Shown here one piece after another: positions 3,873-63,425 of a stretch of 64,000 nt of DNA (position 1 is the first letter of the stretch; the number at the start of each line of letters is the position of its first letter). The notes beneath the pieces are model-generated. The model did no database searches. It was given only the letters and a program-made list of their open reading frames with translations, and was not told the DNA's origin. A program made the translations under genes and the position numbers. The DNA is from a virus (taxonomy: Duplodnaviria > Heunggongvirae > Uroviricota > Caudoviricetes), in IMG/VR virus record IMGVR_UViG_3300028048_000122; one strand, given 5' to 3'.

Positions 3873-4562
3873 ATGAGCAAAGAATTGAAAGTAACCTTTT
3901 TTATAAAAGTCCCGGACGAAGAAGTCGAGTCCATTAAAGATGATTTAAAAGAACATGGTGATGAAATCATCGAGAAAGAGTTCCCGAAAATTGAACTATG
4001 CGATGTATTTCAGGCAGAAGACGTATATCATACAGAAAAGATGGTTTCTTATGGCGAAATCACGCTCGGCAAAAAGGTTCAGGTAACTGACCCTTGCTAT
4101 CACCTTGATGTTTGGTGTACAGAAACTATTGAGAATATGCTGCCGGGTGAATACGGCACATTTGCCTTTATTGCAGATAGAGGGATGATGGGCCGTCGTG
4201 TATCAAAATTAATGATTATTCATAAGAGCGTAGAATTAGGCGACCTGAAATTTAAAGTTGTTACCGGCGATATCGGCGTAGATAGCGGAAACTGCGGCTT
4301 TTTTGATTATAATAAGTATAAAGAAGCTAAGGAAGCTGATGCTAAGTTTGAGGCTGAACACAACAATATTGGTCCATTTACGAATAAATGGTGGTTAGTT
4401 TCAGACAACCTAAGAACACTTGGCGGCACACTGGATAACTGGGGCGTATTTTCTCATAGCGGTTATGGCGATGGCAGTTATGATCTGTATCTAGCTTACG
4501 ACGAAAGCGGAGAAAATGTAATCGCGGCTAAAATCGTTTACCTGTATGACGAGGAGGAATAA
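3873..4562 (+). CDS. hypothetical protein (229 aa) with SGYGDGSYD motif
   Basis: Clean ORF with GGGGG RBS; motif reminiscent of DUF4241-type proteins (unverified). Confidence 0.5.
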   Translation: MSKELKVTFFIKVPDEEVESIKDDLKEHGDEIIEKEFPKIELCDVFQAEDVYHTEKMVSYGEITLGKKVQVTDPCYHLDVWCTETIENMLPGEYGTFAFIADRGMMGRRVSKLMIIHKSVELGDLKFKVVTGDIGVDSGNCGFFDYNKYKEAKEADAKFEAEHNNIGPFTNKWWLVSDNLRTLGGTLDNWGVFSHSGYGDGSYDLYLAYDESGENVIAAKIVYLYDEEE

Positions 4563-4564
4563 CT

Positions 4565-4792
4565 ATGGAACAGAAATATAAATGGTTCAATTTCGGTTTG
4601 GAATATAAGATGTATGGCACAAAGTCTGTAAAAGTACCAGCAGATTTCACCAAGGAACAGGCTGAAGAATATGTACGTGAACATTGGGATGATATTGACC
4701 TACCCTGCAATGCCGGTTATCTGCCCAACAGCGCTGTCGCTGATTTTAACTGCAGCAATTTTGAAGAGGACCTTTTTAAGGAGGAGGAATAA
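4565..4792 (+). CDS. hypothetical protein
   Basis: ORF; acidic tail. Confidence 0.45.
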   Translation: MEQKYKWFNFGLEYKMYGTKSVKVPADFTKEQAEEYVREHWDDIDLPCNAGYLPNSAVADFNCSNFEEDLFKEEE

Positions 4793-11498: not shown

Positions 11499-12636
11499 AA
11501 GTCATCAGGTAAAAAGACTCATGATAAGGGTAAAACATTGAAGGCTCCTTTCAGCGGGCGTGATGCAGACGCGTCCGCTATCATCTGGGCTCAAAGGTGA
11601 AAGTCTTAAGAGCTCGGCATTTTATCACACCTCCTCAATTATTTCTCTACATTTCTCTTTTTATCGCGATCATTTCACTGGTCGTATTCCTCCATCTGGT
11701 TCCCGGACAAGACACAAAACTGTCTAATTCATAATGACCTCCGACCAGCTTTCGGGCTGGTTGATACTTGAAAGAGCTTGTATCAAAACCTTGTTACCCC
11801 CTTGGCATAGATACTGGTGTACTCCTTTCTGATTTTGTTTGTGGTGATTGGCTCCTTTTCATTTTACCTCTCACTCTTTCAGGTATCAACGAACCCGAAA
11901 CATGGGTTCCATGGTGATTTGCCTTTCTTTCTAAGGCCAGCTTCTAGGCTGGCTGATATTCACGATAACTATAATAATCATGGATATCAGCGACCCTAGA
12001 GGTCGAAAAAATTTAACAAACAGAAAACTATGGCAAAGCATACCTCGGTTATAAAACGCAATATCATGCGTCCGAGAATGGCCCCGTAATTGATACTAAC
12101 AAACTGCAGTAGATATGCCTGCAGTGAGTATGTCCTCTCTTAGTGATAAAAGCGGGCGGCACGTAAAGTGTAAACGCGCGTATCTTGAGGTCATGTGCAT
12201 GCAATGCCGAGCATTAAAGCAGGAACTGACAGGGTTCCATAAGTGCGTGAATGCAATTGGTGCATTCCTCCGCCGCCAGTTAAGGCTCAAGGCCTGATAA
12301 ACCTTGAGATACACGAGGTATTTATCGAGATGAAACTTTGCTGTGATGTCCTCAAAAAGGACTATAACTGTCAGTCGCCGTACAAGTAGCCCAAGGCAAT
12401 GATACAGATCAGTATGCAGCTTTATAGCAATCTATAATTCTGAATGACGGGTGAAAGTTGAGGGTCACAATCCCTTTGGAGCTAGAAAGAGGCAAGAAGC
12501 GCGTGTCGACGGGCGCGTTGCTCAGACTTGTCTTCTCCGTGGCTGAATAAATGCAGAGCATCAAGTTGTGTATAGGGAAACCTGATGTTTTGCCGTAGTT
12601 TTGTGTTTGTTAATAACACAGGTGAACTAACTATTT

Positions 12637-12729
12637 GGAGTTGTGGCTGAGAGGCTGAAAGCGGCGCCCCGCTAAGGCGTTATACCCCGCTATAGGGTAT
12701 CGTTGGTTCGAATCCAACCAACTCCGCCA
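12637..12729 (+). tRNA. tRNA-Ser (anticodon GCU), type II, CCA encoded
   Basis: Acceptor GGAGTTG/CAACTCC, 3-bp D stem, anticodon stem GCGCC/GGCGT, loop CCGCTAA (C at position 33 is unusual), long variable arm, T arm GTTGGTTCGAATCCAAC. Confidence 0.7.
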
Positions 12730-12733
12730 TGAT

Positions 12734-12809
12734 GTACCTTTGGCGTAATTGGTAACACGGCAGTCTCCAAAACTGTAAGATGTTGGTTCGAGTCCAGCAG
12801 GGTATGCCA
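12734..12809 (+). tRNA. tRNA-Trp (anticodon CCA), CCA encoded
   Basis: Folded by hand; all positions fit standard 76-nt numbering (U8, A14, G18G19, U33, CCA, A37, T54T55C56). Confidence 0.85.
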
Positions 12810-12813
12810 TTAT

Positions 12814-12888
12814 GTTGATGTAGCTCAATGGGGATAGAGCACCGAAACTGTAACTTCGGAGACTCAGGTTCAAGTCCTGACATCGGCT
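12814..12888 (+). tRNA. atypical tRNA, Tyr-like anticodon loop aCTGTAAc (GUA) with 8-nt loop, type I body
   Basis: Acceptor GTTGATG/CATCGGC (2 G-U pairs), D arm GCTC-AATGGGGATA-GAGC, stem CCGAA/TTCGG encloses 8 nt, T arm TCAGG-TTCAAGT-CCTGA. Confidence 0.5.
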
Positions 12889-12997
12889 TAGCTAATTTAG
12901 TCTGACTGGTCTGATCAGCCGGTTAGGCGAAACACTACTGTAGTGGCCCTAAAGGGCGTGCTCGAAATCCCGAAGTACGTAAAATATGTCGGGATGT

Positions 12998-13072
12998 GGT
13001 TCCGTAGTATAGTGGTCAGTATATCGGCTTGTCACGCCGAGGACACGAGTTCAATTCTCGTCGGAACCGCCA
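12998..13072 (+). tRNA. tRNA-Asp (anticodon GUC), CCA encoded
   Basis: Acceptor GGTTCCG/CGGAACC; loop TTGTCAC; T loop TTCAATT. Confidence 0.85.
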
Positions 13073-13199
13073 TCATGTCCCAGTATCAGGCTAACGTCTG
13101 ATCAGAGGCATACATTTTTCAGGGCGCCCACCGCAGCGCGGCACCACCGTTAATTACACGCCTAATGCCAAATGCGGTTAACTTGAATAATTCCCTGTA

Positions 13200-13475
13200 A
13201 AGGGATTAGATATAGTTGTTGACTCAGACGGTCGGCAACAAAACGGTCACTATCCGGCCGCTCCGTTAACTAAAATCCGTCAGCTACCGGAGGGAAATAC
13301 GATAGGTCCTGAGTAAGACCGAACTGCTCGCTTCTAATGTCCTTCTCCCAGGCTAACGTCTGGTAGGGGATACAAAAACAATCCGGTCACCGTCCGGCCA
13401 CTTATATCGGCTCACAACGGCCCTGATATAAGGGAAACAAGACGGATCCTGGGTACGATATAACTGCCCACGCCC
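13200..13475. repeat. degenerate tandem duplication (~140 bp units) in non-coding DNA
   Basis: Units near 13255-13330 and 13393-13470 share CCGGCC...GGGAAA-ACA..GG-CCTG-GTA-GA...AACTGC...CTAATG; the motif CAGGCTAACGTCTG also occurs twice (13087, 13339). Confidence 0.4.
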
Positions 13476-13479
13476 TAAT

Positions 13480-13555
13480 GGTGCTCATCGTCTAATGGTT
13501 AGGACAGCAGTTTGTGGCACTGCTAATCCCGGTTCGACTCCGGGTGATCACCCCA
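13480..13555 (+). tRNA. tRNA-His (anticodon GUG) with encoded G-1, CCA encoded
   Basis: Extra 5' G pairing with discriminator C; anticodon stem GCAGT/ACTGC, loop TTGTGGC; T arm CCCGG-TTCGACT-CCGGG. Confidence 0.8.
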
Positions 13556-19714: not shown

Positions 19715-19789
19715 GGTTCCAAAGCTCAACGGTCGAGCAAACGCCTCATAAGCGTCAGGCTGAGGGTTCAAATCCCTCTGGAACCACCA
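19715..19789 (+). tRNA. tRNA-Met (anticodon CAU), CCA encoded
   Basis: Acceptor GGTTCCA/TGGAACC; D arm GCTC-AACGGTC-GAGC; loop CTCATAA; T arm GAGGG-TTCAAAT-CCCTC. Confidence 0.85.
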
Positions 19790-19992
19790 TAATGGAATAA
19801 GCGAGGTAAAAGTCTCGCGAATTCCTCTCTTTTCCTAAACACACATGAACAACTGCGCCCAGACAGTATAACAGCTGGGTAGTGTTTCGGTGTGCTGAGC
19901 ACGAAAGAAATTCAGCCTTCCACTTATGAGGGGTCGTTAAGAGGCGGGCGCATCGTCGTCGTAGGTTCGAACCCTACCGTCCCTCAACTCAT

Positions 19993-20062
19993 GTCAGCGT
20001 CGGCATAATGGTAATGCCAGGGCCGCAAGCCTGAAATGCGGGTTCGACTCCCGCCGCTGACC
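19993..20062 (+). ncRNA. tRNA-like element with truncated anticodon arm
   Basis: Perfect acceptor GTCAGCG/CGCTGAC, D arm GGCA-TAATGGTAA-TGCC and T arm GCGGG-TTCGACT-CCCGC, but only 19 nt between the D and T arms. Confidence 0.35.
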
Positions 20063-20215
20063 GTACGAGCCATATGGCGCGTCATTCTTTTCGAGGTTTT
20101 CAAGACTTAAACAAGAGAATCTTCGCAACATTATAGGCTTTGACTGGCGTCTGCTTTATGGCAGGAACACAGGGAGGCAAAGCTAGGGGCAGTTGGCAAC
20201 AGCTGCTCCGGTACT

Positions 20216-20297
20216 AGGGGTATCGCCAAGTGGCTAAAGGCACGGGACTTTGACTCCCGCATTCTTCGCGCTGGTTCGAATCCAGCTGCCCCTGCCA
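20216..20297 (+). tRNA. tRNA with anticodon UUG (Gln by anticodon) but type-II-like body, CCA encoded
   Basis: Acceptor AGGGGTA/TGCCCCT; 3-bp D stem with 11-nt loop; stem CGGGA/TCCCG; loop CTTTGAC; 10-nt variable region; T arm GCTGG-TTCGAAT-CCAGC. Confidence 0.55.
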
Positions 20298-20303
20298 TAT
20301 CAT

Positions 20304-20380
20304 GCGTCACTTAGCTCAACAGGCAGAGCCTACGGGTCTAGCTCGTAGAGATTCGGGTTCAAATCCCGAGGGACGCACCA
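20304..20380 (+). tRNA. putative amber-suppressor tRNA (anticodon CUA), CCA encoded
   Basis: Acceptor GCGTCAC/GGGACGC (one mismatch); D arm GCTC-AACAGGCA-GAGC; stem TACGG/TCGTA; loop GTCTAGC with U33 and centre CTA; T arm TCGGG-TTCAAAT-CCCGA. Confidence 0.5.
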
Positions 20381-20385
20381 TTATT

Positions 20386-20497
20386 ATGGGAAGCACCCAA
20401 GGTGGGTTGTAAGTGCCAAAGCAGGTTCGACTCCTGCCACCTCGTAAGAGGTTTGAGGAAAACAGCGGCCCGGTTCGATTCCGGGGCTTCCCGCTTT
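20386..20497 (+). ncRNA. composite tRNA-like element (two T-arm hairpins inside perfect GGGAAGC/GCTTCCC stem)
   Basis: Hairpins GCAGG-TTCGACT-CCTGC and CCCGG-TTCGATT-CCGGG; CCAAGGTGGG motif. Confidence 0.3.
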
Positions 20498-20907
20498 AAA
20501 ACTACCGTAGGGACTACGGAAAGTTACGCCTGTGGAGAGAGTGTAAGACGGATATATTCCAGTTCTCGACGAATCAGGAAGCTCACGCCTCTATAGGCGG
20601 GGGTAGTTCACCATGAAGCTGATGTATTGGTGTCAGTTTGTCTGGTGTGATAACGACACGAGATAAACTATATGGCCATATATTGGCACCGGCAAAAGCT
20701 CAAAACAAAAGTAAGTAGCCGGGGCAAGACCAGGACACCTCCTGGATTTTATTATGTACATCGAGGTTATTATGCATATGCTAATTATCCGAAAAGTTAG
20801 GTGTGGCTTCCGACTCGATGCGGCGAAGAGAGGGTAAAAGGCATAGTGAAGATATCTACAAAGGGCAACCGCGTAAGCGAGCTCCCCGCGAACCGGATAT
20901 CTATCAT

Positions 20908-20982
20908 GGCTTGGTAGTCTAGTGGTTAGGCGACGGTCTGCAAAACCGTTTTACGCCGGTTCGATTCCGGCCCAAGCCTCCA
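20908..20982 (+). tRNA. tRNA-Cys (anticodon GCA), CCA encoded
   Basis: Acceptor GGCTTGG/CCAAGCC; stem ACGGT/ACCGT; loop CTGCAAA; T arm GCCGG-TTCGATT-CCGGC. Confidence 0.85.
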
Positions 20983-20994
20983 TATCATGGGAAA

Positions 20995-21105
20995 CGCCAT
21001 GGTGGCGGAAAAGAGCATTCGGGTTCGATTCCCGACGCCCTGCGGGGTCCGTGGTGGTCAGCCTGGTTCGAGTCCAGGGTTTCCCTCGTTAATCATTTAG
21101 CCGTA
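20995..21105 (+). ncRNA. two tandem tRNA-like minihelices (GGTGG motif + T-arm hairpin)
   Basis: CCATGGTGGCG...TCGGG-TTCGATT-CCCGA and CCGTGGTGGTCA..CCTGG-TTCGAGT-CCAGG; no D/anticodon arms. Confidence 0.3.
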
Positions 21106-21556
21106 GTAATTCTGCGTATGTGAACCTTCCGATACAGCGCCTTAAACGCTCGGAAGCACGGGCTCACAACCCGTGGCAGCTAATATCCTCTGGTTTAAGC
21201 AGAGAACCGGCGTCAGCGAACTACTTTGCATGCGAGAGTTCATTAAGCTGACGAAAAATGGTAGCGGCGGCGAAGTCCTTGCGGTGGATGAGTAGCCAAG
21301 GAGTTCCTATATTGGACAGTAAGAGCGGGTTCGATTCCCGACACGTCGGCAGGCGTCCTGGTGGTAATAAGTGCTGGTGCGCGCAGACTTCAATTCTAGA
21401 TACGAAGTCTGTGCAATTCCAGCAGCTCCATGTGCGTAAACACATAAAAAGAAGCTGATAACCGTGGCGTCAGTTTTCCCTGGCCCGATGGGGACAATAA
21501 TATCATCGGGTTTTGCCGTAGGTGAGGGCGGATACTCATCGTTCACGGGCTATTAT

Positions 21557-21646
21557 GGAGATGTACCCAAGTGGTTTAAGGGGACTGCTTTGAAAGCAGA
21601 TAGGCCGCAGTGATGCGGTGCGCGGGTTCGAATCCTGCCATCTCCT
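21557..21646 (+). tRNA. tRNA-Ser (anticodon UGA), type II
   Basis: Acceptor GGAGATG/CATCTCC; 3-bp D stem CCC/GGG; loop TTTGAAA; variable-arm hairpin CCGCA-GTGA-TGCGG; T arm GCGGG-TTCGAAT-CCTGC; no CCA. Confidence 0.75.
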
Positions 21647-21692
21647 CTCTGTCACGACAAACGCCTTGACGTGGCGACAGAGCTTTTTACCA
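21647..21692 (+). terminator. hairpin + T-run after the tRNA array
   Basis: TCTGTCACG...CGTGGCGACAGAG followed by GCTTTTTACC. Confidence 0.4.
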
Positions 21693-52946: not shown

Positions 52947-53705
52947 ATGAACTACTGGAATGCTAGACAACAGAATGCCGCCCGTGCACAGAGACGGACG
53001 GAAGAATTTGAAGCTAACTCTACTCCAGCCATGAGTCGTGCTTTGGCCAACACGGTTACGTATGGCGGCAAGAATAAAAAACCTGCGTATATACTGAATA
53101 CCAGCCCCTATGCGGATTTTGAAGTCGTACAGATGTCTACGACCGAAGCCATCTACGAGCTTGGTCATAATGATTGTATCGCGCTGAACTTCGCATCATA
53201 TAAGAATCCGGGTGGCGCTTTCTTGAAAGGTTCCTGCGCTCAGGAAGAATCGCTCTGCCACGAAAGCTGGCTATATAATATTCTGGCTCGGCAGACCGAC
53301 TATTATGACTGGAACAAGAAGCATCTGAACCGCGGGCTTTATCAAGACCGCGCTCTTTATACTCCTAACGTAGAGTTTGAACACGATGGCAAACGAGCCG
53401 TAGCTGATATCCTTACTTGCGCAGCGCCCAATCGTAGCATTATCGAGAAAGGATATACAAACTTTACTGAGGAAGAGAATAAGACGGCAATGATTGAGCG
53501 AATGGTTTTCATATCCCAGATTGTTTCTATGCATGCCCATAAAGATGTTCTCATTCTCGGCGCATGGGGATGTGGCGTATTCAAGCAAGACCCCAAATTT
53601 GTAGCAAGAATTATCCGCAATACGCCGTGGTATAATATCAATAAAGTTGTACTGGCGGTTATCGATAAGCCGACATATGAAATCTTTAAGAAGGTGTTTG
53701 CATGA
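52947..53705 (+). CDS. microbial PARG-like macrodomain protein (TIGR02452/DUF2263-type)
   Basis: NFASYKNPGGAFLKGSCAQEESLC matches the conserved PARG-like signature (AxxxPGGGxxxGxxAQEExLC). Confidence 0.55.
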   Translation: MNYWNARQQNAARAQRRTEEFEANSTPAMSRALANTVTYGGKNKKPAYILNTSPYADFEVVQMSTTEAIYELGHNDCIALNFASYKNPGGAFLKGSCAQEESLCHESWLYNILARQTDYYDWNKKHLNRGLYQDRALYTPNVEFEHDGKRAVADILTCAAPNRSIIEKGYTNFTEEENKTAMIERMVFISQIVSMHAHKDVLILGAWGCGVFKQDPKFVARIIRNTPWYNINKVVLAVIDKPTYEIFKKVFA

Positions 53706-54031: not shown

Positions 54032-54239
54032 TACAATCATCAATCCAAAGCACGTATGCTACGCAGAGATAATTGAGAATAATGACTGGCTTGGTATTCA
54101 AGACGGCTACATTATTCAATGTAAACTGGACGATGGCAGGAAAATTAAAATAAAGGATTCAGACGGTAGAGGCTTTTCTCGCCTCGAAGCCGATGACGCT
54201 TTGGATGAAATTAACGACGCATTGGAGGCTGACGAATGA
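54018..54239 (+). CDS. hypothetical protein
   Basis: GTG start after GGAGGCC (uncertain). Confidence 0.35.
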   Translation: MRVGNTIINPKHVCYAEIIENNDWLGIQDGYIIQCKLDDGRKIKIKDSDGRGFSRLEADDALDEINDALEADE

Positions 54240-54679
54240 TGAAGTATTTATTTCTCGACATTGATGGCGTAATGAATTCTGCCGCTGACCGGTTTTCTAT
54301 AAAGCTCGTAAACAATGCTCCGTTTGAACGGCTCAAGAAAATTATTGACACTACCGGAGCTAAGATTATCCTGTCTTCTTCATGGCGACATGGATATGAG
54401 CACGGCACTTGCGATTTGCTGAAGCAGCGTTTGGCTGAATATGGTCTATCCATAGAAGACACAACGCCTATTAACAACAATAGGCGTGGAGAACAAATCC
54501 GGGAATGGCTTACGACACATGACTACGATGAAAATGTCGATACCTTTGTCATACTGGACGATGAAGACTTTGATATCTTGGCTCTCTATCCAGAGCAAAT
54601 GGTTAAGACAGATGAAATGATAGGACTGCAGGATTATCAAGTCTGGAAATGTATCGACAAATTAAATCGAAAAAAGTAG
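54236..54679 (+). CDS. HAD-superfamily phosphatase-like protein
   Basis: Motif I FLDIDGVMN, motif II SSSW, later DD; size of PNK-phosphatase/deoxyribonucleotidase type. Confidence 0.5.
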   Translation: MMKYLFLDIDGVMNSAADRFSIKLVNNAPFERLKKIIDTTGAKIILSSSWRHGYEHGTCDLLKQRLAEYGLSIEDTTPINNNRRGEQIREWLTTHDYDENVDTFVILDDEDFDILALYPEQMVKTDEMIGLQDYQVWKCIDKLNRKK

Positions 54680-54704
54680 TAAGAGATTTTTGGAGGAAGA
54701 ATGG

Positions 54705-55046
54705 ATGGCTATCAAACAGATTGCGAAGTGCGTCTACGAAGCGGATGAAGATACCACTCGGGAAGAATTAAAGGAAGCCGGTTGGATTTCGTCCGTCAAA
54801 CTTTCCCGCATGAAAGGTATATGGGCCGTCGCGTTATTGAAGCGCGATATCAATGGGCTTACGGCGGCAGGTTTGGAAATTCTCAGTTTTCATGGCGGCT
54901 ACAGTAAAAAGTATTATTATCACGAAGAGCAGGTTGTTCCTGTTCTAAAAGAGATGCAAAAGTTTCTCGATGAACATTGTGTGCGTTATGCGTGTGAAGC
55001 GCAGATGTGGCATGTCAGAGAATTTTGGAGGCAATATAATGGCTAA
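54705..55046 (+). CDS. hypothetical protein
   Basis: GGAGGAAG RBS. Confidence 0.45.
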   Translation: MAIKQIAKCVYEADEDTTREELKEAGWISSVKLSRMKGIWAVALLKRDINGLTAAGLEILSFHGGYSKKYYYHEEQVVPVLKEMQKFLDEHCVRYACEAQMWHVREFWRQYNG

Positions 55047-55536
55047 GATAAGAATCGCCGGTATTCAAGACGATTCCGTAGTAGATGGCGAGGGCATCCG
55101 TATGACCGTATTTAGCCAAGGCTGTCCTCATCATTGTTGTGGCTGTCACAACCCTGCTACTTGGGATAGTGAGGGCGGCTATGTAACTACTACAGAAGAA
55201 ATTCTGGAACAATATAAGAATAATCCACTTCTGGACGGCATGACGTTTAGTGGCGGCGAACCATTCATGCAGCCGATGATGTTTTTTGACCTGGCCAAAG
55301 AGGTTCACAAAATGGGTGGAAACATCTGGTGCTATACCGGCTACACATTAGAAGAGCTTCTGAAGTACACATATGGCCCGCACAGGATGCTGCTTGAGCA
55401 GATAGATGTACTGGTAGATGGTGAGTATAAAGAGACATTAAGAGATCTTACTCTCCAGTTCCGTGGCAGCAGTAATCAGCGTATCTGGGAACGTCATGGT
55501 GATATGTGGCAACTCTGGAAGCAGAACGTAGCCTGA
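55039..55536 (+). CDS. nrdG: anaerobic ribonucleoside-triphosphate reductase activating protein NrdG
   Basis: GCPHHCCGCHNPATW cluster motif, FSGGEPF; GGAGG RBS. Confidence 0.8.
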   Translation: MAKIRIAGIQDDSVVDGEGIRMTVFSQGCPHHCCGCHNPATWDSEGGYVTTTEEILEQYKNNPLLDGMTFSGGEPFMQPMMFFDLAKEVHKMGGNIWCYTGYTLEELLKYTYGPHRMLLEQIDVLVDGEYKETLRDLTLQFRGSSNQRIWERHGDMWQLWKQNVA

Positions 55537-58670: not shown

Positions 58671-59024
58671 ATGACTTTAAATGATTTTTTCGCCCGCAAT
58701 AATATATGCGGGTTCACTCCGGAAGAACTGCGTGATATCTTATCTTTACGCAGCGACTTTCGCGTAGATGTATCGCCGCCCGCGGGAGTTATCTTGCGCG
58801 GCGTTACCATAAAGCCTTTAGGCTGCGTCGCCGATTATTTTACCGATGATGAAAACGGTAAGAAAATCAAGACAAATAAAAGTTCTTCCGCTACGGGAGC
58901 GTGTTATTATATCCAAAAAGAACTTGGCTGTAATCATCACGCCACCCCGGGAGAATGCCGTACATGCTTTTTGTCCTGCCTAGCTTTACTGGAAGCTGGA
59001 GAGGTATATAAAAGGAAAAGATAA
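58671..59024 (+). CDS. hypothetical protein
   Basis: GGGGAATAGACAATG RBS. Confidence 0.45.
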   Translation: MTLNDFFARNNICGFTPEELRDILSLRSDFRVDVSPPAGVILRGVTIKPLGCVADYFTDDENGKKIKTNKSSSATGACYYIQKELGCNHHATPGECRTCFLSCLALLEAGEVYKRKR

Positions 59025-59056
59025 ATCATAACCAAATTTTAAGGAGGAAGATATCT

Positions 59057-59332
59057 ATGAGTAAAACTGATATCATTAACATCGTAGCAGAGGAAGCAGG
59101 CATCGCAAAGAAAGACGCCGAGAAGGCAGTTACCGCGGTACTGAACGCCATCGTCAAGGCAACGGCTGAAGGCGATAAGGTAGCACTGGTCGGCTTCGGT
59201 ACGTTTGAAGCTAAGGAACGCGCCGCACGCATGGGACATAACCCTAAGACTGGCGAACAGATTCAGATTCCCGCTTCCAAGAGCGTGTCGTTCAAGGCAG
59301 GCAAGCCGTTTAAAGAGGCTGTTAACGCTTGA
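59057..59332 (+). CDS. HU-family histone-like DNA-binding protein
   Basis: Full-length HU/IHF pattern (MSKTDIINIVAEEAGIAKKDAEKAV...GFGTFEAKERAARMGHNPKTGEQIQIPASKSVSFKAGKPFKEAV). Confidence 0.8.
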   Translation: MSKTDIINIVAEEAGIAKKDAEKAVTAVLNAIVKATAEGDKVALVGFGTFEAKERAARMGHNPKTGEQIQIPASKSVSFKAGKPFKEAVNA

Positions 59333-59964
59333 TCGATCCGGCCTTAAAAGCGACACTGCAGAAAAAATATGGAACCGAGCAGGTTTACACCATCCCGCTT
59401 GCTTACGCGACATCAGTTTCCGATAAGTTTGCGCCCGAAAAACCGCGAAATGCTTATGGCGGTTCCTTCGTCCTTCGCAGTGACGCTGAGTACAATGAGG
59501 CTTTAATTCAGATTATCCCGTACATCCTGGTAGTCAATAAGGCTCATAACAAGATGTATGTAACCAAGAGAATCGCCGGGGAAGAACGTTTGCGTGATTC
59601 TCTGGCTCTTGGTTGCGGCGGGCATATCAACCCCTGTGATTTCGGCGCTGACTTTATTGGCAATGCCGCCCATAGGGAAATGAATGAAGAACTCAATATC
59701 CGTCTGGCCAAAGATACCGACCTTGTTACGATAGGCACCGTAAGAGATTTAAATTCGGCGACGAAAGAACATCTCGGCATCGTCATGATCGCTACGGCTG
59801 GAACGGTAAGCGTCAAAGAGAAGGATACTTTAAAAGGATATTGGATGACTTACGATGAGTTGGTCGCTAACTACGCCAACTTCGAGAGCTGGGCCAAGCA
59901 TATATTAGATTATATGTTTGAAAATGGCGGCTCCATCGAAAGCATCGTTGAAGGGGGCAAATGA
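59329..59964 (+). CDS. divergent Nudix-like hydrolase (tentative)
   Basis: GGHINPCDF...AAHREMNEELNI approximates Nudix box Gx5Ex7REUxEExGU; start uncertain. Confidence 0.35.
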   Translation: MIDPALKATLQKKYGTEQVYTIPLAYATSVSDKFAPEKPRNAYGGSFVLRSDAEYNEALIQIIPYILVVNKAHNKMYVTKRIAGEERLRDSLALGCGGHINPCDFGADFIGNAAHREMNEELNIRLAKDTDLVTIGTVRDLNSATKEHLGIVMIATAGTVSVKEKDTLKGYWMTYDELVANYANFESWAKHILDYMFENGGSIESIVEGGK

Positions 59965-61335
59965 ATGGAAGAACTTCGTATCGTCGTCAAGAGGAATGGC
60001 GACAAGGTTCCATATCAGACAAAGAAAATTTACGCGGCAATCGCCGGCGCCAATAAAGATTCCCGCGGAGAAATGTCTGCTCATGCCATTAGCAACGCGG
60101 TAATGCAGACAGACGTTAAGCTTCAGGGGAAGAGAGAAATCTCCGTGGAGCATATCCAGGATATGGTCGAAGAAACACTTATGGACAATAAGTATTTTAA
60201 GACGGCCAAGCAGTTCATTATCTACCGCGATCTTCACAATAAACGTCGGGAAGCTAATAAGAAGCTGATGGCATCGTACAGCGACCTCCTGTTTACCGAC
60301 GCAGAAGACATGGATTTAAAGCGTGATAATGCTAACATTAACACGGACGCCCCTATGGGCATCATGCTGAAACTGGGGACGGAAGGCGCCAAGTCATGGG
60401 CTTTGTCTTATGGCTTGCCGGAAAAATTCGTTAAGGCGCATAAAGAACATGCGATACATTATCATGACCTTGATTTCAGCTTTATCACTCTTAACTGTTT
60501 GCAGCAGGACTTGGGCAAAACCCTTAAGAATGGTTTTAATACCGGTCATGGTTTTTTGCGTGAACCGAACTCTATTCGTGCCGCAGCTTCATTGGCATGC
60601 ATCGCCATTCAGAGTTCTCAGAACGATTGTTTTGGAGGCCAGTCTATTAACGCCCTGGATTACGCTCTGGCTCCTTACGTAGAGAAGAGCTTTAAGAAAG
60701 CTCTTAAAAAAGTGCTTTTGAGAGCAGAGGATTGGTTGGGACGTGATACATATCATCTTATTCCTCAGTCAATCAAGGAAGATATCATTGATAAACTGAT
60801 TCAGGGAAACAATATTCGCTACGGCTTAAAAGGCGAAGAGTTAGAAGCTGCGGCAAAAGCAATTCATGCCGAGATATTCGGGAAAAAAGATATAGAGCAA
60901 TATCAAAGTTTTCGAGAGGCTAAAAAACTTTATCACATGGCTTGTCAAGACGTAGAAGAAGAAACCAAGCAGGCTATGGAAGCTATGATTCATAACTTCA
61001 ACAGTTTACATTCGCGCGCCGGATCTCAGGTCCCCTTCAGTTCTATCAATTTTGGTATGAACACTACCCCTGAAGGACGCTTGGTTATCGCTAAAACGTT
61101 GGATGCTATCGACGCCGGTCTTGGTCATGGCGAAACGCCGATATTCCCTATCTCGGTATTCACCTTAAAAGCCGGGGTTAATTACAATCCTGGAGATCCC
61201 AATTATGACTTATTTCAGCGGGCATGCGAAGTAAGCGCTAAGCGCTTGTATCCTAATTTCACTAATTTGGATGCGCCATATAATCTCAAGTACTATAAGC
61301 CCGACGATTACAACTCTTTCTTCGCATGCATGGGT
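59965..61335 (+). CDS. nrdD: anaerobic ribonucleoside-triphosphate reductase NrdD, exon 1
   Basis: N-terminal ATP-cone, class III RNR core; reading frame stops at TAA immediately after inferred 5' splice site. Confidence 0.75.
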
Positions 61336-62410
61336 TAACTGAAAAAGTTACACGATTTTCTACAGCCCATGTAAAACTCCTTAAATTGCTGGAAACCTAA
61401 ACAATATTTGTCAGCATCCCATAGTGACAAATCTATGGGTAATAAATTTGACGAAAAATATATTGCATGGCAATCAGCAGCCAAGCTTTAAGGAGTTCGT
61501 CAAATTGCATAAAGAAAACGGAAAATATTTTGTGGATTGCTCTTGTTGTAACAACGAATTTGAAGTAGGAAAAAATACATATTTTAAAAAGAAAGAACAC
61601 ATATGTCCTAAATGCCGCGTTAAAAACCAAAAAATGCCATTATATCCGTCGGAATATAGTCGGATTTTGATTTTGGTAACATGCCAAGAATGCGGCAAGG
61701 AATTTGCTATGAAAAAAGAGAATGTAGATAGCAGATTCTTAAAATATGGCAAGCATTTGTGCCCTTCATGTTCGAAAAAAGGCGACAAAAACCCATTCGC
61801 TGGGAAAAATTTTTCAGAAGATCAGCGAAGCAAGCTCTCCAAGATAAGAGCTGCATATTATAATGATGCAGAACTTGGAGAGCAACGGCGGCAAGAAGTA
61901 TCTCGAAAGACAACAGGAGAAAATAATCCAATGTATAAAGGCGCTGCTTTGAAAAGTGACTATACATGGAGAAATAAAGCCTTTCGAGAAAAGGTACTTA
62001 AACGAGATAACTATACTTGTCACAAATGTCACAAAAGGAAACAAGACAAAGAATTAAAAGCTCATCACAAAAATAGTTGCAACTGGGACATTAAAGGTAG
62101 ACTTGATATTGATAATGGCGCAACTCTTTGCGATGAATGTCACAAATTATTTCATCGTCTTTATGGCTACGGCGATAATACCGTAGAGCAATTTGAAGAA
62201 TTCCTTAAAGAAGGTTCAGAGACTATCGAAATTGCTGAAGAAGCAAAAGTAGAGTAGGCCGCAAGTGCGGTCCAAAAAGGGAGTACAATAAAAATAGTAT
62301 ATTTATTGTAATGATATAGTCCGACACCTGTAGAAATACAGGTCACATGCGGAAACGGTATGTGAAAAAACTGAAAGTGTAGAACAAGAACTATGGACAA
62401 CGTTAACGGG
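61336..62410 (+). mobile_element. group I self-splicing intron in nrdD carrying an HNH homing endonuclease ORF
   Basis: Exon-1 end CATGGGT pairs with intron GCCCATG at 61365-61371 (P1 with U-G at the splice site). The intron ends in G at 62410. The downstream frame continues NrdD (GSRGNFSFATINLP...CGF glycyl-radical region). The insert is AT-rich. Confidence 0.6.
61424..62257 (+). CDS. HNH homing endonuclease (intron-encoded)
   Basis: Several Zn-ribbon CxxC pairs; HNH core TCHKCHKRKQDKELKAHHKNSCNWDIKGRLDIDNGATLCDECHKLFH. Confidence 0.75.
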   Translation: MTNLWVINLTKNILHGNQQPSFKEFVKLHKENGKYFVDCSCCNNEFEVGKNTYFKKKEHICPKCRVKNQKMPLYPSEYSRILILVTCQECGKEFAMKKENVDSRFLKYGKHLCPSCSKKGDKNPFAGKNFSEDQRSKLSKIRAAYYNDAELGEQRRQEVSRKTTGENNPMYKGAALKSDYTWRNKAFREKVLKRDNYTCHKCHKRKQDKELKAHHKNSCNWDIKGRLDIDNGATLCDECHKLFHRLYGYGDNTVEQFEEFLKEGSETIEIAEEAKVE

Positions 62411-63262
62411 CCGTCCCAAAGCGGCTCTCGTGGCAATTTCTCGTTTGCGACGATAAATCTTCCCATGGTAGCTCTGGACGCTAAGGGCGATATCAATAAG
62501 TTCTTTGAATTATTCGATGAACGTATCCTGTTAGCCAAGGAATACTTGGAATATCGTTATAACATTATCGCTCATAAACAGGTGAAAAATTTCCCGTTTT
62601 TAATGGGCGAAGGGCTTTGGCTCGACAGTGAAAAATTGGGACCGGAGGATGAAATCGGGGAGGTATTGAAGCATGCGTCTATTTCGATTGGCTATGTCGG
62701 CCTTGCGGAGTGTCTTGTTGCTCTTACCGGTGCTCATCACGGAGTATCGGAAGATGCGCAAAAGCTCGGGCTCAAAATAATTGGTCATCTCAGAAACATG
62801 ACGGACAAATTCACGGAAGAAACTCATATGAATTGGTCAACCTTCGCTACTCCAGCCGAGTCATTCGCCGGCGTTGCGTGCCGCGCATGTAAGAAGAAAT
62901 ACGGCCAGATTAAAGGAGTAACTGATCGTGAATATTTCACGAACGGAAACCATGTTCCCGTATATTATCCCATCAAGGCTATTGATAAGATTCGTATTGA
63001 GGCGCCATACCATGCACTGGCTAACGCCGGAAACATTTCGTATATTGAGATGGATGGCGACCCTACTAAGAATGTGAAAGCGTTCGAGAAAATTGTACGG
63101 GCCATGCATGACGCGAATATGAGTTATTTTTCTATCAACCATGCTGTAGATCGCGACCCCGTATGTGGGTTCACGGGCATCATCGAAAACGAATGTCCGC
63201 ACTGCCATCGTCACGAAGAAACTGTTATTAACAGCATCAAGAATGTAAAGAGGGTTCAATAA
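62411..63262 (+). CDS. nrdD: NrdD exon 2 (glycyl-radical and Zn-ribbon C-terminus)
   Basis: GSRGNFSFATINLP (class III RNR signature), DPVCGFTG glycyl-radical motif, CPHCH C-terminal Zn site. Confidence 0.7.
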   Translation, partial: PSQSGSRGNFSFATINLPMVALDAKGDINKFFELFDERILLAKEYLEYRYNIIAHKQVKNFPFLMGEGLWLDSEKLGPEDEIGEVLKHASISIGYVGLAECLVALTGAHHGVSEDAQKLGLKIIGHLRNMTDKFTEETHMNWSTFATPAESFAGVACRACKKKYGQIKGVTDREYFTNGNHVPVYYPIKAIDKIRIEAPYHALANAGNISYIEMDGDPTKNVKAFEKIVRAMHDANMSYFSINHAVDRDPVCGFTGIIENECPHCHRHEETVINSIKNVKRVQ

Positions 63263-63425
63263 CTTTGAGTTTACAGGAACAGCTTAAGTACATTAAAGAA
63301 AACATGCCCGAAGCATACGAGTATTTGACGAAGGAAGATTCTTCTGATATATCTCTTCCAACATTCGATGATAACGACGACCTGGTAGGTTACAGGGCAG
63401 TTTGATTTAGAAGGAGCAATAGCCT

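Follow-up and report, generated by a model that had tools for sequence, protein, structure and literature searches.

An interrupted nrdD is the commonest split ribonucleotide reductase (RNR) gene among sequenced phages (PMC3653736), and a further case is described here from a 64,000-nt stretch of DNA (the window) of the Caudoviricetes phage IMGVR_UViG_3300028048_000122, whose nrdD (59965-63262, plus strand) is interrupted by an insert. Group I introns, together with HNH or other endonuclease genes, break up nrdD in the 'Jug' jumbo phages of the gut (Sci Adv 2026), where splicing of the introns is backed by metatranscriptome reads (PMC12880540). The SPO1 DNA polymerase intron with I-HmuI and the Twort nrdE intron are Gram-positive-phage HNH group I introns positioned at highly conserved catalytic-site codons (PMC3653736), and the phage RB3/T4 nrdB group I intron encodes I-TevIII, an HNH enzyme with two zinc fingers (PMC1865063). 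Sequestration of the ribosome-binding site (RBS) is documented for all three T4 intron endonucleases (PMC2988022). The T4 nrdD (sunY) gene holds an IA-type group I intron of 1033 nt with an internal homing-endonuclease open reading frame (ORF), that of I-TevII. Within that intron, the ORF lies close to the 3' end.

The insert in the window is very probably a 1042-nt group I intron, IA-like and without P2, which carries an HNH homing-endonuclease gene in its P6 loop and is inserted at Gly457|Cys458 of NrdD. As an element it belongs to a known type, the ordinary mobile group I intron; a site at the catalytic-cysteine codon was not found described. The parallel with T4 nrdD drawn by the initial annotation of this DNA holds at a generic level, in that both genes contain an IA-type group I intron of similar length with an internal endonuclease ORF whose RBS lies within RNA structure (in T4, PMC2988022; here, by prediction), and fails in the particulars. 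The T4 site, ...AFQAYE|YEVNTLF, corresponds to about residue 340 here, roughly 115 codons upstream of MG|CR, and I-TevII is a GIY-YIG enzyme rather than an HNH one. Whereas the T4 ORF sits towards the 3' end of its intron, the one here occupies the P6 loop, and no nucleotide similarity to the T4 nrdD intron was detected in the phage-collection search. Orthology with the sunY intron was rejected, as site, endonuclease family and ORF location all differ, and by this comparison the two introns are independent insertions into one gene. With the window copy, phage nrdD would thus have two independent group I intron sites, the second falling precisely on the codon of the catalytic Cys, in keeping with the rule that invariant codons of active sites are the targets of homing elements. 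In this respect it resembles the SPO1 and Twort introns, from which it differs in host gene and site. Like I-TevIII, the encoded protein joins HNH and zinc-finger modules within an RNR-gene intron (nrdB there, nrdD here), but the N-terminal HNH and C-terminal zinc fingers of I-TevIII appear in reversed order, with NUMOD3-like motifs between them. The window phage is distinct from the Jug phages; it shows HU-NUDIX-nrdD synteny and encodes a Selenomonadaceae-like NrdD. The interrupted gene is composed as follows.

59965-61335, plus strand: nrdD exon 1, 457 codons, coding for the ATP-cone and for the NRDD barrel in its N-terminal half; final residues ...FFACMG, final base U61335 (ORF list and Pfam).
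61336-62377, plus strand: group I intron, IA-like by its predicted fold, 1042 nt, with an in-frame UAA (61336-61338) at its start and the terminal guanosine ωG62377 at its end (Rfam, restored junction, homologous introns, covariation).
62378-63262, plus strand: nrdD exon 2, 294 codons and stop; first codon UGU, Cys458; ends ...CPHCHRHEETVINSIKNVKRVQ* (translation, alignment and Pfam).

The frame of exon 1 (ORF 59965-61338) runs into TAA 61336-61338 directly after ...FFACMG (GGT 61333-61335), as the initial annotation had noticed, and a second NRDD-matching ORF lies in the frame of 62393-63262. Exon 1 matches the Pfam ATP-cone (E 5.5e-19) and NRDD (E 7e-76) profiles, the latter over positions 1-263 of 562, and exon 2 takes up the NRDD match at profile positions 272-538. 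The low GC content remarked on earlier is real, with 36% in the insert, which holds an ORF of 250-277 aa, against 44-45% in the exons. Upstream of 62411, the exon-2 frame reads CRTRTMDNVNG from TGT 62378, preceded by G62377; the motif GSRGNFSFATINLP, previously taken as the point where the frame resumes, sits well within exon 2. Joining 61335 to 62378 yields the ligated RNA AUGGGU|UGUAGAAC, which encodes ...FFACMG|CRTRTMDNVNGPSQSGSRGNF, and a spliced NrdD of 751 aa that is 60-69% identical to cellular NrdDs over its full length and scores 911 bits against NCBIfam NF005497 (cut-off 764). Specifically, in an alignment of the spliced NrdD with 11 uninterrupted homologs (A1), a comparison that the initial annotation had proposed, this junction leaves no gap and residues M456, G457, C458, R459, T460 and R461 are invariant, whereas the junction favoured by that annotation leaves a gap of 11 residues. 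Compared with more than 100 uninterrupted NrdDs, too, the revised junction gives back MGCRTR ungapped. NrdDs in the PDB read MGCRTR or MGCRSF at this position, with MGCRTRVFEDRWGEKTSIARGNLSF in the Prevotella copri enzyme and MGCRSF in that of T4, and Cys458, encoded by 62378-62380, is the finger-loop cysteine of MGCRTR.

The 3' splice site lies at G62377|T62378, because MGCRTR is restored ungapped, ωG precedes the site and a 7-bp P10 adjoins P1; comparison of nine intron copies places it identically. Both exons are contacted by one guide sequence, 5'-UUCUACA|GCCCAUG-3' (61358-61371), whose 3' half pairs with exon 1 and whose 5' half pairs with exon 2. All P10 cells are paired (100%) in the nine sequences, with two pairs varying to G·U, and ωG is the terminal intron base in 9/9 copies.

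Two matches to the Rfam Intron_gpI model (RF00028), one on each side of the ORF, together span the core: 61387-61533, comprising P4-P6 (model positions 60-138, 18.2 bits, E 0.073), and 62142-62343, comprising P7/P3'/P8/P9 (36.7 bits, E 2e-7). The J6/7-P7 and J8/7-P7' segments agree with the Rfam consensus UCAaAGACUA / GAUAUAGUC. After removal of the ORF loop, the window copy was folded as a mini-intron by minimum free energy (MFE), with the pseudoknots P7 and P10 added by hand. The MFE fold recovers P1, P3, P4, P5 with a long P5a-c arm, a 13-bp P6, P7.1, P7.2, P8, P9 and P9.1, and the complete structure comprises P1, P1.1, P3-P9.1, P7.1/P7.2 and P10. Its elements are the following.

61329-61371, plus strand: P1, exon CAUGGGU (61329-61335) with guide GCCCAUG (61365-61371), U·G wobble at the 5' splice site.
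61336-61339 / 61347-61350, plus strand: P1.1 hairpin in the P1 loop, UAAC/GUUA; one pair changed on both sides (CG to AU).
61358-61364, plus strand: P10 half of the guide, UUCUACA, the exact 7-bp complement of the exon-2 start UGUAGAA (62378-62384); abuts the P1 half.
61376-61382 / 62278-62284, plus strand: P3, ACUCCUU / AGGGAGU (MFE); 96.8% of cells paired, two pairs changed on both sides.
61387-61479, plus strand: P4-P5 domain, with P4 61387-92/61474-79 and P5 61396-97/61469-70 (Rfam and MFE).
P5a 61402-07/61460-65, P5b 61408-13/61449-55, P5c 61418-24/61433-39, plus strand: extended P5 arm (MFE), differing in length between copies.
61486-61498 / 62198-62210, plus strand: P6, CUUUAAGGAGUUC / GAAUUCCUUAAAG, 13 bp; closes the ORF-bearing loop and contains the Shine-Dalgarno sequence of the ORF.
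62221-62321, plus strand: 3' half of the catalytic core, with P7, P7.1, P7.2, the P3 3' strand (62278-84), P8 and J8/7 (Rfam alignment).
62221-25 / 62317-21, plus strand: P7, GACUA / UAGUC, invariant in 9/9.
62232-36 / 62242-46, plus strand: P7.1, five pairs changed on both sides.
62257-62 / 62267-72, plus strand: P7.2, four pairs changed on both sides.
62286-92 / 62302-08, plus strand: P8, six pairs changed on both sides.
62326-32 / 62337-43, plus strand: P9, with a GAAA loop, four pairs changed on both sides.
62344-50 / 62358-64, plus strand: P9.1, six pairs changed on both sides, followed by a 12-nt tail and ωG62377.

The P1 helix is the one proposed in the initial annotation, with the guide at intron positions 30-36 and the U61335-G61365 wobble present as predicted there, and the group I core that was named as a test of the intron is fully located, with all helices from P3 to P8, including P7. 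Between P1 and P3 the spacer consists solely of UAAA (61372-61375) in all copies; hence there is no P2. Hairpins P7.1 and P7.2 between P7 and the P3 3' strand are said to mark subgroup IA, and a P2 helix between P1 and P3 is typical of subgroup IA2, the type of T4 td and sunY. On the modelled fold the intron is IA-like, from P7.1/P7.2, and not IA2, as P2 is missing.

Covariation was assessed for an 83-pair core structure on an alignment of the nine intron sequences (A3). Standard pairing occupies 94.6% of cells, compared with 36-41% when the 3' partners are slid by 1-3 columns, and 35 of the 83 pairs are changed on both sides, against 2-9 in the slid controls and 15.6±2.5 in shuffled ones; the observed values were attained in 0/500 shuffles. 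In P4, 100% of cells are paired and one pair is compensatory. P6 (helices 7 and 8) is 95-100% paired, with five pairs changed on both sides, and the copy at locus L014 builds this helix from another sequence. In P1, pairing reaches 93.7% of cells, and the splice-site U·G is invariant in 9/9. P1 and P10 are otherwise mostly unvarying, so that covariation neither supports nor contradicts most of their pairs.

A minor observation concerns the 5' strand of P9, which holds UGUAGAA (62329-62335), the same 7 nt with which exon 2 begins, making an alternative partner for the P10 guide possible. The identity is probably a coincidence, since the homologous introns have UGCAGAA and UAUAGAA there.

Twelve contig loci (L004-L015), retrieved through eight HNH proteins with 45-88% identity to the one encoded here, all carry the HNH gene inside nrdD at the present site. 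Together they reduce to nine distinct intron sequences, the window included, from metagenomic phage and bacterial contigs, and the eight other same-site copies, along with the covariation-supported fold, bear out the initial annotation in its central claim of an nrdD interrupted by a group I intron with an HNH ORF. All nine introns (9/9) are bounded ATGGGT|TAA...G|TGTAGAAC, read MG|CRT(R/K) across the junction and measure 1013-1052 nt; beyond P9.1, G|TGTAGAAC is the sole conserved element. Three loci (L004, L006, L010) belong to close relatives of the window phage with HU-NUDIX-nrdD synteny. Another copy lies on a 344-kb contig (L009), whose nrdD also contains a LAGLIDADG insert and has a C-terminal fragment of 89 aa encoded separately, and that of L014 lies at a bacterial-looking locus with nrdG adjacent. 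Intron and HNH ORF thus form a family that occurs in diverged genes of gut or rumen phages and in one or more nrdD genes that look bacterial.

Intron-less alleles exist at the same position. The nrdD of a syntenic relative (L017) is uninterrupted, with ATGGGT|TGTCGC at the site and GCGATGGGT|TGTCGCACG around it, and that of S. ruminantium is likewise intron-less, with ATGGGT|TGCAGA. Presence in some nrdDs, absence in relatives and restriction to one site mark the intron as an optional element, as expected for a homing intron. The nine copies thereby provide both a covariation data set and natural intron-plus/intron-minus allele pairs.

The endonuclease gene itself is defined as follows.

61505-62257, plus strand: HNH homing-endonuclease ORF, 250 aa, TTG start, UAG stop at 62255-57, in the P6 loop (Pfam, PHROGs, PDB).

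Its product begins with two CxxC...CxxC zinc ribbons in the N-terminal part, continues with two NUMOD3-like motifs and has an HNH domain at the C-terminus, with the motif C172HKC...H186H...N203...C209DECH. It matches PHROGs HNH families to E 1e-13 and the HNH endonuclease PDB 5h0m at E 9e-4. The HNH assignment made in the initial annotation is confirmed by these matches; the Pfam profiles fall just below their cut-offs. Among database homologs (30 proteins of 139-426 aa), most full-length ones measure 234-277 aa, and TTG 61505 corresponds to the start chosen by gene callers in most of them. Relatives in annotated phages share 28-51% identity over part of the length, the nearest being in Staphylococcus and Bacillus phages; tblastn with the ORF gave no significant match in T-even phages. 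A perfect Shine-Dalgarno sequence, AAGGAG (61490-61495), stands 9 nt upstream of the TTG within the P6 5' strand, and the final ~60 nt of the ORF overlap the P6 3' strand, J6/7, the P7 5' strand and P7.1. As a side observation, the ORF ends in UAG and the window encodes a tRNA (20304-20380) with a CUA anticodon, labelled tRNA-Pyl by ARAGORN, which is a potential amber suppressor.

This arrangement suggests the following course of splicing and mobility. The CAUGGGU end of exon 1 would pair with its guide to form P1, presenting the U·G at the splice site, and exogenous guanosine held in P7 would attack after U61335. The exon-2 start would then be held by the guide in P10, ωG62377 would take the place of the guanosine in the P7 pocket, and the 3'-terminal hydroxyl of U61335 would attack after ωG62377. 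In the predicted spliced mRNA, ...GCATGCATGGGT is joined to TGTAGAACAAGAAC..., and the finger-loop cysteine is restored. Before splicing, the in-frame UAA at intron positions 1-3 would halt ribosomes at the splice site. The folded ribozyme would hide the Shine-Dalgarno sequence in P6, and a translating ribosome would unfold the core; given this sequence within P6, and the overlap of the ORF 3' end with P6', P7 and P7.1, the ribozyme is expected to fold only when the endonuclease is not being translated, and vice versa. On the model of other phage HNH intron endonucleases, the HNH protein should cut or nick intron-less nrdD near ATGGGT|TGY, after which repair would copy the intron in (homing).

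Several observations weigh against a mobile, self-splicing intron at this site. Both Rfam scores fall under the 50-bit gathering threshold (best 36.7), which is probably due to the ~700-nt ORF dividing the model match. Helix P7, being invariant, gains no support from covariation, and the missing P2 is atypical of T4-type IA2 introns. For the endonuclease, Pfam HNH (E 0.002; 18.7 bits, cut-off 21.4) and NUMOD3 (E 8e-4) both remain just sub-cut-off, and a search of the plus strand within the intron gave no promoter-like site for the ORF, counts being no higher than in shuffles. Finally, the spliced NrdD still lacks a glycyl-radical motif, so that splicing alone yields no self-sufficient enzyme.

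Rather than being spliced, nrdD might be split by a free-standing endonuclease gene into two assembling polypeptides, like nrdA/mobE of Aeromonas phage Aeh1. Gene callers do give separate ORFs, ATG 62393 could begin a 289-aa fragment, and intron-less split RNR genes are known in phages (PMC3653736). Such a fragment, however, lacks Cys458, encoded upstream at 62378-62380, and the flanks of the endonuclease gene build an entire group I fold, P1, P10 and ωG included, which is kept by compensatory changes in nine diverged copies; a plain intergenic spacer leaves this unexplained. A split gene is rated highly unlikely.

An equally slim chance is given to a decayed intron, in which splicing has been lost and nrdD is a pseudogene in the window phage. 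The Rfam score below gathering is compatible with decay, as is the C-terminus of the protein: the spliced NrdD stops after the zinc ribbon (...CPHCHRHEETVINSIKNVKRVQ*, region 63200-63262) without RRxxGY, its profile coverage ends early (NF005497 to 718 of 746; Pfam NRDD to 538 of 562), and no glycyl-radical domain (GRD) gene was found in the 64-kb window by regular-expression search and phmmer, using the GRDs of T4, PFL, L007 and L009 against the six-frame translation. Against decay, both exons are intact and conserved along their full length, all core helices pair in the window copy, the HNH ORF is intact and an nrdG is present in the same phage. Moreover, cellular Selenomonadaceae NrdDs are also without a fused GRD, which makes the truncated end a clade trait and not a sign of decay; the ~120 best homologs end likewise, including Selenomonas, Anaerovibrio, other Selenomonadaceae and metagenomes.

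The 1075-nt intron of the initial annotation, ending at G62410 with the junction ...ACMG|PSQSG (continuing SRGN...), has next to no chance of being right: 62410 is indeed a G, and the CCG that starts at 62411 fits the frame of the downstream ORF, but this end lies 33 nt (11 codons) too far downstream, deletes CRTRTMDNVNG with the invariant catalytic Cys and so opens its 11-residue gap against every homolog, offers at 62411 a CCGUCCC that is not complementary to UUCUACA and forms no P10, and has no conserved counterpart in the homologous introns. For annotation, either that junction or the two ORFs of the gene callers yields an NrdD without its catalytic cysteine.

With the group I intron at Gly457|Cys458 retained as the preferred explanation, the missing glycyl-radical motif may instead reflect the architecture of the enzyme. 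At two of the related loci, a separate ORF lies directly 3' of nrdD (L007, 94 aa, 4319-4603; L009, 89 aa, 4259-4528), and both small ORFs end ...RIRRITGYLVGT(V/L)DR(W/F)N(D/T)AKRAE..DR.KH, a canonical glycyl-radical motif. Stand-alone proteins of ~94 aa with RRITGYLVGT..DRWN.AKRAE make up a conserved family with many members in these taxa, and in a Selenomonas genome (L016 4001-4285) a ~94-aa GRD gene lies directly upstream of nrdG. The jumbo-phage paper records a pair of nrdD fragments, 230 and 91 aa long, that are not joined by splicing (PMC12880540). Together these sequences raise the tentative possibility, rated slightly below an even chance, that the phage and Selenomonadaceae NrdDs are the body of a two-polypeptide class III reductase, with the glycyl radical on a separate ~94-aa protein. 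The window phage, with nrdD and nrdG but no such gene in the 64 kb, may then rely on a subunit for the radical that is either encoded in another part of its genome or supplied by the host. No description of a split NrdD glycyl-radical architecture was found in a limited literature search, which is no proof of absence. If the architecture is real, the intron sits at the thiyl-radical cysteine of an enzyme built from three separately encoded pieces, and a large NrdD clade with the GRD apparently on a separate small protein could be of wider enzymological interest.

Two other explanations for the truncated C-terminus were considered and rejected. A second intron, frameshift or bypass (...KRVQ*; next ORF ...LVGYRAV*) is contradicted by the cellular homologs, which end at the same place, with mnmA following 58 nt after nrdD in S. 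ruminantium. The 46-aa acidic ORF directly after nrdD (63265-63405, ending ...DDLVGYRAV*), which is conserved in L004 (4261-4401), has no PHROG match and no similarity to GRDs, and was dismissed as a glycyl-radical domain.

The activase gene of the phage is located upstream of nrdD.

54970-55536, plus strand: NrdG-like activase gene, Fer4_12 and Radical_SAM (Pfam E 4e-40).

A 118-aa ORF (54690-55046) overlaps its annotated start and contains no glycyl-radical motif. Further upstream of nrdG lie a microbial PARG-like gene and a HAD_SAK_2 ('Swiss Army Knife RNA repair') gene (52947-53705 and 54236-54679, respectively).

In nucleotide searches of the annotated-phage collection, the near search returned no match and the distant search a single 130-nt match in nrdD; from these nearly empty results, the phage is absent from that collection. 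Compared with the intron-less syntenic relative L017, the window (59000-63420) is 89% identical over the first 1.7 kb (to ~60675) and ~76% identical beyond, a mosaic that points to recombination inside nrdD, upstream of where the intron lies. Related nrdDs carry other inserts elsewhere in the gene, among them HNH_3/NUMOD4 ORFs, a LAGLIDADG ORF and inteins, at these positions on their contigs.

L007, 694-1344: additional nrdD insert.
L009, 972-1835: additional nrdD insert.
L012, 1520-2095: additional nrdD insert.
L013, 1982-2659: additional nrdD insert.
L015, 69-2075: additional nrdD insert.
P0096: additional nrdD insert.

Judged by these sequences, several mobile elements have entered nrdD independently, and the gene is a hot spot for them. 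Elsewhere in the window, two tRNA clusters of about 10-13 genes extend over 12637-13555 and 19715-21647, and a full-length ROOL RNA (12020-12603; Rfam RF03087, 215 bits, gathering 99) lies immediately upstream of a tRNA cluster.

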